Shown here in pieces: positions 2,723-6,073 of a stretch of DNA of 6,073 bases (positions within the stretch are counted from its first letter, which is position 1; every line of letters begins with the position of its first letter). This DNA comes from a virus (taxonomy: Duplodnaviria; Heunggongvirae; Uroviricota; Caudoviricetes), in the IMG/VR virus record IMGVR_UViG_2534681736_000018; one strand, given 5' to 3'. Both the position numbers and the translations under genes were made by a program. The notes under the pieces are model-generated. The model was not told the origin of the DNA. It was given only the letters and a program-made list of their open reading frames with translations, and did not search any database.

Positions 2723-2798
2723 GCCGATATAGCTCAGTTGGTAGAGCAGCGCATTCGTAATGCGAAGGTCGTAGGTTCGACTCCTATTATCGGCACCA
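2723..2798 (+). tRNA. thrW: tRNA-Thr (anticodon CGU), 76 nt with encoded CCA
   Basis: GCCGATA acceptor stem pairing with TATCGGC, D-arm GCTCAGTTGGTAGAGC, anticodon loop TTCGTAA (CGT), T-arm GGTTCGACTCC, 3' ACCA; matches E. coli thrW from memory. 114-bp gap from proA as in the K-12 arrangement. Confidence 0.95.
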
Positions 2799-2812: not shown

Positions 2813-3976
2813 TTACACATCATTAGTACCTTCCTTATTTTTTGACTGGGACAAATTTGGGACCGATGGGTTCAGGATCGAGTCTATTTGCCGTGCGTGT
2901 TCGGTAAGGTGATTAGGTGCAAGGTGAGCATATCGACGAACCATTTCGATAGACTCCCAGCCTCCCATTTCCTGTAACACTGACAACGGGACTCCGGCTT
3001 GAACCAGCCAACTTGCCCAGGTGTGTCTCAAGTCGTGAAATCTGAAATCATCAATACCAGCCCGTCTCAGCGCCGCTTTCCAGGCTGTGTTTGCGTCATA
3101 CCGCATCTTCCTTACTGTTGGCGCTTTCGTTCCGTCTGGTTTGGTACAGCTTTCCTTGTACACAAATACCCAACGGTGATGATTCCCGATTTGTTTTTTC
3201 AATACGCGACATGCAGTATCATTCAGCGCAACGCCAATTGCGCGGTTTGATTTACTCTCTTCCGGGTTTATCCATGCCACCCGGCGCTGCATATCTATTT
3301 GTTGCCATTCAAGGTTGATGATGTTCGAGCGTCTTAAGCCTGTTGCCAGTGCAAATTCAACAACAGACTTTAATGGCTCCGGACATTCATCAATCAGCCT
3401 TTGTGCTTCATGGGGCTCCAGCCAGCGGATCCGTTTATTCTTTGGTTGAGGCACTTTAATAATTGGTGCCTTATCCAGCATTTTCCATTCACGCTCTGCG
3501 GCTCTTAGTAGGGCCTTTATAAATGAAAGATGCGTAGCCTTCGTTGCAACGGACGCTGGTTTTGGCGTGTATTCTGGAACAGGTTTCCCTTTTTTTCTGC
3601 ATGCTTCTGCCCTGAGTTTCCAGTTTTCCTCATGACGCCGGTTCGTCATTTTCTGCATTGCTGAATAAATTTTTGATTCAGTAATGTCTCTTAGTTGCAT
3701 TCCTGCGAAATGTTGAAGCCAGAATCCGATCCGGCTTTTGTCATCGTCCAGCGATTTTTTATGTGCTTTCTCTTCAAGCCACCTGACACACGCTTCCTCG
3801 AACGTTATATCAGGTATTTCACCAAGTTTGCTGACCCGCCATGCTTCAGCCTTTAGCTTGTCATGGAGTTCTGTCGCCTGCCTTTTGTCCTTTGTTCCAA
3901 GAGACTGTTTAAATCTTTTACCGTTCGGCAATGTGAAACTGGCGTACCATATTTCACCTCTGCGGAAGAGTGACAT
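2813..3976 (-). CDS. int: Phage tyrosine integrase, P22 Int-like, 387 aa
   Basis: ORF 2813-3976 (-); N-terminus [41 protein letters not shown] is characteristic of P22/lambda-family integrases; C-terminal catalytic region with ...[39 protein letters not shown] (R..H..R..Y motif region). RBS AGAGGAAAG upstream of ATG. P22 is known to integrate at thrW. Confidence 0.93.
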
Positions 3977-4203
3977 TTTCTTTCCTCTGTTATGCCATCA
4001 CCCGCGCTCACCTGGACAGTATGCAGCGGAGACTGAAGAGCCGCAATGCAGGCTTGTCGTGTTGTGAGGTAAGGAGATTTATTCTTAGTGGGATCTTTGC
4101 GTGTTGCCTGAAGACGCCCTGTGCGTATCCAGTTAATGGCAGTCGGTCTGGATATCTTGAGAAAATGACAGGCCTCATCGAGTGTGAGGCTGTATGGCTC
4201 CAT
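3853..4203 (-). CDS. xis: Excisionase (Xis), P22 Xis-like, 116 aa; 3' end overlaps int by 124 nt
   Basis: Internal start of ORF 3853-4287 at ATG 4203-4201, preceded by AAGAGGTGAAATA (strong RBS); begins [31 protein letters not shown], a helix-turn-helix typical of the excisionase/AlpA family; TAATG start/stop overlap with the upstream gene. 116 aa matches my recollection of P22 Xis length. Confidence 0.75.
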
Positions 4204-4508
4204 TATTTCACCTCTTGTTGTGACATTGTTGAAAAATGGATACCTGCTCGTTGCTGCCAGACGATCCAACCGAGAGTCATATCCCATGCCATGTATTCGT
4301 TATCGCCGTTTTTTGCTCTCCGACGATCTACTAAGTCACCGAAACGCTTTTCCATGAATAATTCATAAGCTTCGCGTTCATCTGGTTCTACTTCCAGAGA
4401 TAGGAGTGCGATTTCATAAGCACGGCGCTCAATATCGTCTCGCACGTCAAGGCTGCTGATACGCTCTTTAATTTCTTTAATCAGTTCTTTGTCGGTAAAA
4501 GTGGTCAT
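4203..4508 (-). CDS. Hypothetical prophage protein, 101 aa (size and position reminiscent of CPS-53 YfdT; from memory, unverified)
   Basis: ORF 4203-4508 (-); acidic, helical-looking sequence (MTTFTDKELIKEIKERISSLDVRDDIERRAYEIALLSLEVEPDEREAYELF...); TAATG overlap with the upstream gene at 4508 and with xis at 4203; GGAG upstream of start. Confidence 0.7.
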   Translation of the reverse strand: MTTFTDKELIKEIKERISSLDVRDDIERRAYEIALLSLEVEPDEREAYELFMEKRFGDLVDRRRAKNGDNEYMAWDMTLGWIVWQQRAGIHFSTMSQQEVK

Positions 4509-4870
4509 TATGCTCCAGCCTCCGGTGCTTTTGGCATTACTGCCCAGTGAGTGATATTGACGTTTTCAAGGTCCCCGACCTGAAATGTCCACTGCCATTC
4601 TCCGGTTTCTTTTTGTCCCCAGGTGTACCAGAGAGAACGCCAGCCAATTAGCCAGCCTTCTCCGTTAGCATCGAATAACAAAACACTTTCATTTGCTGGT
4701 GGCAGTTCAGTTGACACTGGTATTACTTTGTTTTCCTGTGCTGCACATTTAGCTTCAAGCGCATCGAATTTACGCACCAGGTATTCAGCATCTGTTTCAT
4801 TCACTTTCAGATCTCGCGGTACACATCTCCCACGAAGAAACCCTTCCATTTCGAAAACATTCATGCGCAT
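4508..4870 (-). CDS. DUF551-like prophage protein, 120 aa (reminiscent of CPS-53 YfdS; from memory)
   Basis: ORF 4508-4870 (-); C-terminal Trp-rich segment GWLIGWRSLWYTWGQKETGEWQWTFQ...ITHWAVMPKAPE resembles the DUF551 pattern common in enterobacterial prophages; GGAG 8 nt upstream of ATG 4870; overlaps the HD gene stop by 10 nt. An alternative ATG at 4864 is possible. Confidence 0.7.
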   Translation of the reverse strand: MRMNVFEMEGFLRGRCVPRDLKVNETDAEYLVRKFDALEAKCAAQENKVIPVSTELPPANESVLLFDANGEGWLIGWRSLWYTWGQKETGEWQWTFQVGDLENVNITHWAVMPKAPEAGA

Positions 4871-5397
4871 TTGCGTAACTCCGATAACTCGTTAAAACGT
4901 TCCATAAACATCCCGTAGGCATGGCCCGGTGCCTGTGGAATCACTTTGAACATCTCTGTTGCCGGGATACCTTCCAGTACAGGCCAGAAAGAGCCATCAT
5001 CAAGCCCGAGATCGCGGCGTTCGGTTGCCAGCATAATGAGATCGGCATATTTCACTGGCGTGCTCATAACAGGAGGTAACCCGTATTTCTCACGTATTAC
5101 GGCGTCTATTTTTTCTTCCATCCGTTTATAGTCAGGAAGAAGTCGTTTCAGTGGTGCGGGGATGTCCTGGCAATATGCTTCTGTTGCATCATGCATTAAA
5201 GCTTCAAAAGCAAATTCCTGTGGCACCAGCTGGCTGCAAAGCACCGCATGTTGGGCGACACTGTAGAAGTGTGAAAGATGTCCTGCAAAGCGACAGATAT
5301 TTGAAAGGGAAACCGCGATATCGTTAATAACGATGTCGTCTTTATTTATCCTGTCATAATAAAAATGCTTCCCGGAAAAAGTTTTAATAAATGACAT
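4861..5397 (-). CDS. HD-domain phosphohydrolase, YfbR/YfdR-like 5'-deoxynucleotidase family, 178 aa from ATG 5397 (187 aa if from 5424)
   Basis: ORF 4861-5424 (-); motifs HFYSVAQHAVL (His) and LMHDATEAYCQDIPAPLK (HD) parallel the YfbR motifs (...HSLQVAMVAH..., YHDASEVLTGDLPTPVK) as I recall them; the start at 5397 has GGAGAA 6 nt upstream, whereas 5424 lacks a clear RBS. Confidence 0.8.
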   Translation of the reverse strand: MSFIKTFSGKHFYYDRINKDDIVINDIAVSLSNICRFAGHLSHFYSVAQHAVLCSQLVPQEFAFEALMHDATEAYCQDIPAPLKRLLPDYKRMEEKIDAVIREKYGLPPVMSTPVKYADLIMLATERRDLGLDDGSFWPVLEGIPATEMFKVIPQAPGHAYGMFMERFNELSELRKCA

Positions 5398-5521
5398 TTT
5401 GTTCTCCACGTATATGCGCTGCACCGCGCTGAATTCGGGTAAAAGGAAGCCCTCACCGTCCGGCGATTATTGAGTCAATTACATTTCCATAAATGCCCCC
5501 GTAGGGGCGGTTAGTTTCTCC

Positions 5522-5610
5522 ACAAAACAGAGAAGAACACCTGCGGTGGCAGCCGCCCGGATGGATTGGGTTATGAGCCCGTCGTCCGGTGATGCTCTTC
5601 TCTGTTTTGT
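5522..5610. repeat. Perfect 15-bp inverted repeat (ACAAAACAGAGAAGA / TCTTCTCTGTTTTGT) enclosing a 59-nt GC-rich interior
   Basis: Arms at 5522-5536 and 5596-5610 are exact reverse complements; the interior contains nested GC stems (e.g. GCGG...CCGC at 5543-5556). Confidence 0.9.
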
Positions 5611-5618
5611 AAAAAGGA

Positions 5619-5655
5619 CGGTACCAGCCGGAAGCAAGGGTACAAGCTGGTACCG
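5619..5655. repeat. Perfect 10-bp inverted repeat hairpin (CGGTACCAGC / GCTGGTACCG), 17-nt loop; on the minus strand it is followed by UCCUUUUUA (terminator-like)
   Basis: Arms at 5619-5628 and 5646-5655 are exact reverse complements; plus-strand 5610-5618 is TAAAAAGGA, so a minus-strand transcript would have a U-rich tract immediately 3' of the stem. Confidence 0.85.
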
Positions 5656-5910
5656 CTAAGACTACACACAGCATAAAGTTGTGGTGCCGGGTGCCTCCCG
5701 GTGCCTGGCGAAGGTTGCACACCAGGCGGGTGGGTATCCACAGAAGGTCGACTGTCAGCCTCAACCTTAACCCGCGTGCGCTGAGCCGCATTCACCACAA
5801 CGCTAAGGATTCTCTCTGGTTGAAAATACTTAGCTGTTATGTGCCTGTCTTTTCACCACTTCAGGCTCGGTGGTATCCTTTTAAGCCCGTATACATAAAA
5901 GGAAAATCAA

Positions 5911-6045
5911 ATGACTTTTGATGAAAAAGAACTTGATAATGCAATTAATAAAATCATCGTAACGTCGCTCTTTTCCTGTCTCAGCGACACTCAGCAAAAA
6001 CAGTTTGAACCGCCCCGGGTTTCCTGGAGAGTGTTTTATCTGTGA
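5911..6045 (+). CDS. Small ORF, 44 aa (MTFDEKELDNAINKIIVTSLFSCLSDTQQKQFEPPRVSWRVFYL), divergent from the phage operon; uncertain whether it is a real gene or a remnant
   Basis: ATG at 5911 preceded by AAAAGGAAAA (RBS-like) 6-7 nt upstream; TGA at 6043-6045; below the ORF-track threshold; no recognisable family. Confidence 0.3.
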   Translation: MTFDEKELDNAINKIIVTSLFSCLSDTQQKQFEPPRVSWRVFYL

Positions 6046-6073
6046 ACTCAGGCTGCCAGATCATCGTTTCCGA

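Follow-up and report, generated by a model that had tools for sequence, protein, structure and literature searches.

An intact copy of the prophage gene yfdR in an integrase-proximal operon beside tRNA-Thr

The viral DNA analysed here, a stretch of 6,073 nucleotides (nt) from IMG/VR record IMGVR_UViG_2534681736_000018 (hereafter the window), contains at 4861-5397 on its minus strand an open reading frame (ORF) that is an intact copy of an already described and already annotated prophage gene, yfdR. We consider it very probable that the product is an HD phosphohydrolase encoded in the early-left (cI-to-int) operon of phages of the SfII/SfIV/ST64B/CPS-53 type, carried here by a defective prophage at thrW of Escherichia coli O157:H7, and that it hydrolyses nucleoside 5'-monophosphates (NMPs) and binds DnaA as its K-12 counterpart does. 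A first-pass annotation, made from the letters of the window alone, had proposed a prophage-borne HD-domain nucleotidase at this position, and the proposal held: BLASTP against YfdR of the K-12 prophage CPS-53 gave 174 identical residues out of 178 (98%), without gaps and at E 1e-136, and the identical locus of O157:H7 is named 'yfdR: 5'-deoxynucleotidase' in RefSeq/PGAP (WP_000008235.1). None of the substitutions that lead from the window protein to the K-12 one (R16K, K151N, Q154L and E170D) falls at a catalytic position, and the K-12 protein (b2361, of CPS-53 or KplE1) has the same length and all the same catalytic residues. Moreover, PHROG 318 ('deoxyribonucleoside 5' monophosphate phosphatase') matches residues 1-178 at 3.8e-109. 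Full-length agreement with the type protein, intact HD residues and a yfdR-yfdS(DUF551)-yfdT neighbourhood together place the product in the YfdR family.

The ORF listing and the translation of the window show an uninterrupted yfdR frame that starts with ATG at 5397, 6 nt after a Shine-Dalgarno GGAG (5407-5404); a GTG at 5424 would lengthen the protein by 9 residues, a start used neither by homologs nor by PGAP. The His...HD motifs noticed in the first reading are present in the translation as H50, H69-D70 and D119, together with R36, E73 and D78. Across the yfdR copies compared, synonymous differences strongly predominate: window and K-12 differ by 15 synonymous and 4 non-synonymous changes, a ratio of non-synonymous to synonymous rates (dN/dS) of 0.07, and for PhiR29_2 and ST64B the ratios are 0.06 and 0.07, respectively, with dS saturated in the ST64B comparison. 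Purifying selection on the gene is strong. A Megablast search of all complete E. coli genomes showed the 3.4-kb arm to be 100% identical in many O157:H7 genomes, in which PGAP lists as neighbours of yfdR a 'phage protein', yfdT, a helix-turn-helix (HTH) protein and a tyrosine integrase beside tRNA-Thr. By tblastn the YfdR protein is found in 332 phage records, among them Stx2a/2c-converting phages, SfII and ST64B as well as phages of Caulobacter, Bacillus, Vibrio, Pseudomonas and Rhizobium, and an exhaustive search of representatives yielded 22,738 clusters at 50% identity that match YfdR at E<=1e-3. The representatives P0122, P0126, P0130, P0139, P0168 and P0214 (~350-400 residues) each hold two YfdR-like stretches and would seem to have arisen by tandem duplication or fusion of the domain.

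The functional picture is drawn from K-12. Purified K-12 YfdR binds to domain I of DnaA, an interaction that depends on Phe46, and is a competitor of DiaA and DnaB; multicopy yfdQRST inhibits initiation at oriC both in vivo and in vitro (Noguchi & Katayama 2016, PMC4776307). The inhibition is described as 'moderate', and the minimal inhibitory set comprises yfdQ and yfdR together with one of the pair yfdS/yfdT (PMC4776307). A 2025 eLife paper still calls YfdR a prophage inhibitor that competes with DnaB (PMC12122000). As for catalysis, the summary of Zimmerman et al. in PMC4776307 gives YfdR a nucleotide affinity much lower than that of YfbR, and a metabolic-engineering paper attributes to Zimmerman 2008 a phosphatase activity of YfdR on cytidine monophosphate (CMP; PMC10870394). 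Following this literature, the window protein would convert NMPs to nucleoside and phosphate by means of a divalent metal held by a His/His-Asp/Asp set, with deoxynucleoside monophosphates (dNMPs) and reportedly CMP as substrates and an affinity far below YfbR's. It would also bind DnaA domain I at Phe46 in competition with DiaA and DnaB and, if over-produced with YfdQ and YfdS or YfdT, would block initiation at oriC. The likeliest natural role would be an early phage accessory function that tunes the host's nucleotide and replication resources to the phage's favour. The link to replication interference drawn in the first-pass annotation stands for CPS-53 YfdR (PMC4776307) but need not carry over to the window: yfdQ, which the phenotype needs, is absent in cis at this locus, and the published phenotype therefore cannot be assumed for the window cassette.

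Several points weigh against the reading proposed here. Deletion of yfdQRST has no replication phenotype, and the authors themselves allow for an over-expression artefact (PMC4776307); deletion of yfdR did not increase CMP yield (PMC10870394); and the substrate range and kinetics, as the citing papers relay them, are second-hand. The closest structure, Atu1052, is a structural-genomics protein whose PDB entry documents neither a function nor a phage context, and a search of the minus strand upstream of yfdR, within the window, gave no sigma-70-like promoter. Finally, the window protein scores 24.5 bits on the YfbR model of Pfam, PF12917, below the gathering score of 25.9 and over residues 41-104 only, where YfbR itself scores 258 bits; on the YfbR equivalog model of NCBIfam, NF003009, it scores 19.9 against a cut-off of 122.

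These curated Pfam and NCBIfam cut-offs rule out strict membership of YfdR in the YfbR family. The only clear solved relative by sequence is Atu1052 of Agrobacterium tumefaciens (PDB 2gz4; 1.5e-12), which shares ~25% identity with YfdR and differs by ~20-residue insertions, and the similarity to E. coli YfbR (PDB 2paq/2par) is confined to ~45-70 residues. A profile built from close YfdR homologs only lacked the depth to detect YfbR (E 0.14, hhalign 46%), so a diverse alignment of 69 sequences, 40-67% identical to the query, was needed; with it, YfbR was recovered at an hhalign probability of 94.9% (E 4e-8), a PDB search reached YfbR at E 6e-5, and 62 of the 69 family members matched PF12917 weakly. 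The catalytic residues are invariant in 34 close homologs. Among the 69 diverse representatives H50 never varies, while R36, H69, D70, E73, D78 and D119 are at least 90% conserved, and these residues align with their Atu1052 counterparts and with the HDxxE...D...PxK motif of YfbR. The failed YfbR cut-offs, the closeness to Atu1052 and the remote profile match to YfbR therefore put YfdR in a large YfdR/Atu1052 family, which is distinct from YfbR and remotely related to it inside the HD superfamily's branch of small nucleotide phosphohydrolases. The first-pass label 'YfbR/YfdR-like' is accordingly right in its YfdR half (174/178), and in its YfbR half at the superfamily level only, not at that of the PF12917/NF003009 cut-offs.

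The all-helical HD fold and the H...HD...D ligand pattern that define the HD superfamily are both found in YfdR, and the fold and the catalytic motif are common to YfdR and YfbR. In fold searches, 2gz4 (Atu1052) scored 20.3, followed by PH0347 (8.7), HDDC2 and DatZ (8.4 each), YfbR (8.3) and OxsA (7.9), with HD-GYP, PgpH and V-cGAP phosphodiesterases at 4.3-4.9. YfdR is thus grouped with YfbR, HDDC2, DatZ and OxsA, and an identity as a cyclic-nucleotide phosphodiesterase of the HD-GYP or PgpH type was rejected on these grounds; profile searches likewise gave no shift towards such enzymes, and the metal-binding residues are intact. YfdR folds as a small stand-alone HD nucleotide phosphohydrolase and has a full single-metal catalytic constellation.

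YfbR is a chromosomal housekeeping 5'-deoxynucleotidase in thymidylate synthesis, whereas YfdR is phage-borne and reportedly of low affinity. YfdR has R36-F37 (family consensus CRFxGH) where YfbR has R18-W19, an equivalence given by motif spacing only, in a segment that profiles do not align reliably. In the abstract of the 2008 work of Zimmerman and colleagues YfdR is reportedly called 'another 5'-nucleotidase in E. coli', and it is said to serve there as an argument that Trp19 is what selects for deoxyribose in YfbR. Phe37 in place of Trp19 would fit a less deoxy-specific enzyme and the reported CMP activity. The Dmp protein of phage T5 has the same annotated activity as YfdR and is also an early phage gene product, but it is not homologous to YfdR (no Pfam HD domain, PHROG 415, hhalign probability 0.3%), and any likeness of role between the two would be convergent. 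Being without an HD domain and unrelated, Dmp is also ruled out as the origin of the PHROG name 'dNMP phosphatase'. PADLOC returned no defence-system match for yfdR, yfdS or yfdT.

The window holds proB, proA and tRNA-Thr(CGT), followed by a minus-strand prophage arm, and its gene content is enterobacterial. The features of the arm are the following.

4861-5397, minus strand: yfdR coding sequence, 178 amino acids plus stop; a predicted HD-domain nucleoside-5'-monophosphate phosphohydrolase whose K-12 counterpart binds DnaA
4508-4870, minus strand: yfdS-like gene, 120 amino acids; 96% identical to K-12 YfdS; Pfam DUF551; PHROG 583
4203-4508, minus strand: yfdT-like gene, 101 amino acids; 96% identical to K-12 YfdT; named yfdT by PGAP
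3853-4203, minus strand: excisionase-like HTH gene (xis), 116 amino acids; PHROG 2907 excisionase at 6.4e-51; Pfam HTH_17; TIGR01764
2813-3976, minus strand: tyrosine integrase (int), last gene of the operon, an ORF of 387 amino acids with the PGAP start at 3931; Pfam Phage_integrase at 3.2e-48
2723-2798, plus strand: tRNA-Thr (CGT), thrW, the prophage attachment site adjoining int; ARAGORN; Rfam tRNA 71.8 bits
5398-5508, minus strand: conserved 111-nt yfdR leader, which contains the GGAG and begins with a small hairpin GCCCC-TAC-GGGGC (~5494-5509)

The first-pass annotation had placed the gene close to the integrase and at the head of a tightly coupled operon, and both descriptions are borne out by the order yfdR-yfdS-yfdT-xis-int beside tRNA-Thr: yfdR and yfdS overlap by 10 nt (4861-4870), a single nt (4508) is common to yfdS and yfdT, the yfdT stop and the xis start are joined in TAATG (4201-4205), and xis overlaps int.

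The prophage is of the SfII/SfIV/ST64B/CPS-53 type. SfII and SKA5 have the order of the window, with cI, the RNA block described below, yfdR and then yfdS onward; in PhiR29_2, ST64B, Stx2a_1447 and K-12, yfdP-yfdQ lie upstream of yfdR and, where the RNA is present, downstream of it. The order yfdR-yfdS-yfdT is common to SfII, PhiR29_2 and K-12. In CPS-53 and in the window alike, these genes occupy the early region near xis in a prophage of the SfV/SfII type, and the two loci share yfdS/yfdT (96% identical) and the 111-nt leader. They differ in that K-12 has yfdP-yfdQ directly upstream of yfdR, whereas in the window an STnc100-like RNA block abuts the leader instead, and in that CPS-53 is integrated at argW, whereas the window prophage lies at thrW, with int-xis adjoining the cassette.

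A structured RNA block directly upstream of yfdR, as announced in the first-pass annotation, is indeed present. Rfam STnc100 matches 5609-5831 on the minus strand at 43 bits, just under its gathering score of 47, and the fold of 5398-5840 on the same strand, the 443 nt upstream of yfdR, has z = -5.0. The STnc100-like element ends in a perfect 10-bp hairpin (5619-5628 / 5646-5655) followed by a U-rich tract. Sub-threshold STnc100 matches also occur in SKA5, PhiR29_2, SfII and ST64B, and the same Rfam comparison found no STnc100-like element in K-12. According to a 2026 preprint, STnc100 is related to the PasD small RNAs (sRNAs) of pathogenic E. coli. A PGAP 'frameshifted hypothetical protein' spans the STnc100-like stretch and SfII has a 112-aa ORF annotated there; these ORFs, rich in Arg, Pro and Gly, look spurious.

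The functional link between RNA and yfdR on which the first-pass annotation had speculated found no backing in synteny. The yfdR leader has 94-96% identity with the sequence between yfdQ and yfdR in K-12, PhiR29_2 and Stx2a_1447, with the homology stopping at ~5508, so that in K-12 the homology upstream of yfdR is limited to the 111-nt leader (5398-5508). A junction probe spanning the yfdR 5' end, the leader and the RNA found matches in 3,014 of the 5,426 complete E. coli genomes; only 466 of these ~3,014 cover at least 80% of the probe and so have the RNA abutting yfdR, and the remaining matches that were sampled break at ~5508. Directly upstream of yfdP, PhiR29_2 and Stx2a_1447 carry the RNA block or its 3' hairpin module, and ST64B too has the RNA block upstream of yfdP. 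A 12-nt sequence at 5497-5508, the core of the hairpin GCCCC-TAC-GGGGC (5494-5512), recurs in PhiR29_2 and Stx2a_1447 at each of the two borders of the yfdPQ cassette. The window layout is thus the cassette-less form, with its junction exactly at the repeated hairpin, and the adjacency of RNA and yfdR is a by-product of the missing yfdPQ cassette. A specific regulatory or co-acting RNA-yfdR module was rejected on this synteny (K-12 without the RNA, 466 of ~3,014 genomes, and the RNA upstream of yfdP elsewhere). The RNA block is not specific to yfdR; either it marks the head of the early-left operon, or it is a separate sRNA gene that has a terminator-like hairpin of its own.

A long hairpin (5522-5610), with arms of 25 nt and a loop region of 39 nt, stands between the STnc100-like element and the yfdR leader. 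Upstream of yfdP in Stx2a/2c phages, mEp460 and the cdtI phage, the segment 5497-5659 is 93-96% conserved, including cases that lack the 5' part of the STnc100-like element. A role of the long hairpin in termination or antitermination is conceivable, because it heads the early-left operon of phages in which no N-like gene is seen at that place.

The last part of the window, 6006-6073, is the end of an IS3-family insertion sequence (IS; IS1203/IS629-like, starting TGAACCGCCCCGGG...). IS-free O157 genomes continue from ~6006 with unrelated prophage sequence, and the IS stands between the operon and the cI/cro region seen in those strains. A short plus-strand ORF, 5911-6045, runs into the IS. In O157:H7 AC-3 an IS1203 is inserted at ~5510-5512, exactly between the RNA block and the yfdR leader. 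Expression of yfdR at the window locus is uncertain, because the IS separates the operon from cI/cro and a sigma-70-like promoter was not detected upstream within the window. With yfdQ missing and the IS between the operon and the immunity region, the yfdRST cassette alone is probably silent or supplies enzyme activity only.

It is possible, if doubtful, that yfdR is here a silent passenger of a remnant prophage, intact by recent inheritance from functional phages and cut off by the IS from its early promoter. The position of the IS3-family end at ~6006 would support this, as would the lack of a consensus promoter on the minus strand upstream within the window, the further IS1203 between RNA block and leader in other O157 strains, and the missing yfdPQ part of the cassette. 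Yet neither yfdR nor any gene downstream of it is broken, their starts and stops overlap, the same yfdPQ-less arrangement exists in SfII and SKA5, which are viable phages, and transcription could arise from the promoter of the STnc100-like element or outward from the IS.

That antagonism of DnaA rather than catalysis is the selected function, with YfdR on the Phe46 patch blocking DiaA and DnaB and stopping host initiation at oriC while a weak nucleotidase activity persists as a vestige, seems unlikely to us. Conservation of the catalytic residues at 90% or more reaches to phages of Caulobacter, Bacillus, Vibrio and Pseudomonas and to bacteria, Agrobacterium among them, that have a different DnaA domain I, and because this conservation extends over such diverse members catalysis appears to be selected family-wide. 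Direct, Phe46-dependent binding to DnaA in competition with DiaA and DnaB, together with inhibition of initiation by over-expressed yfdQRST (PMC4776307), does speak for DnaA antagonism, which is still cited in 2025 (PMC12122000); so does the low nucleotide affinity given in the literature summary, and an early-left operon of temperate phages with their own replication genes fits a role in host takeover. The inhibition is nevertheless 'moderate' and needs yfdQ, absent here, plus yfdS or yfdT, and deletion is without phenotype. We hold it improbable that the substrate is other than a canonical (d)NMP, with YfdR acting as a phosphohydrolase of nucleoside triphosphates ((d)NTPs) or modified nucleotides like DatZ or OxsA, or as a degrader of a nucleotide-derived signal, and so serving as a pool sanitiser or counter-defence factor. 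More speculative still, and suggested by the weak activity on canonical nucleotides, the true substrate of the YfdR/Atu1052 family may be a nucleotide that is damaged or modified, or else an immune signal derived from nucleotides, its removal being joined with DnaA antagonism in a host-takeover or counter-defence module; nothing points there specifically.

An early-left HD phosphohydrolase, as proposed here for the window yfdR, offers little discovery value: RefSeq already annotates the gene, enzymatic assays and DnaA binding have been published for the K-12 ortholog, and the probe with the yfdR 5' end and leader matched roughly half of the complete E. coli genomes. The 'deoxy'-specific name of YfdR is weaker than it looks, because its family is not that of YfbR and has an uncharacterised protein as its nearest structural neighbour. 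What the very large YfdR/Atu1052 family acts on in nature, and in what role, is a question of general scope that does not arise from the window locus.

Two minor observations concern the flanks of the operon. The xis starts given by PGAP differ between genomes, one being at 4287 in FRIK944 (144 aa) and the other that of a 351-nt coding sequence adjoining yfdT in AC-3; the start of the shorter form, at ATG 4203 (116 aa), is the likelier one, because this form matches the 117-position PHROG 2907 profile end to end. The window ends at the IS, before the immunity region, and does not contain the counterpart of the isrK/C4 pair that is found in the immunity region of ST64B (L004): there, at 7505-7693 and downstream of a cro-like gene, isrK (64 bits) lies beside the C4 antisense RNA (80 bits).
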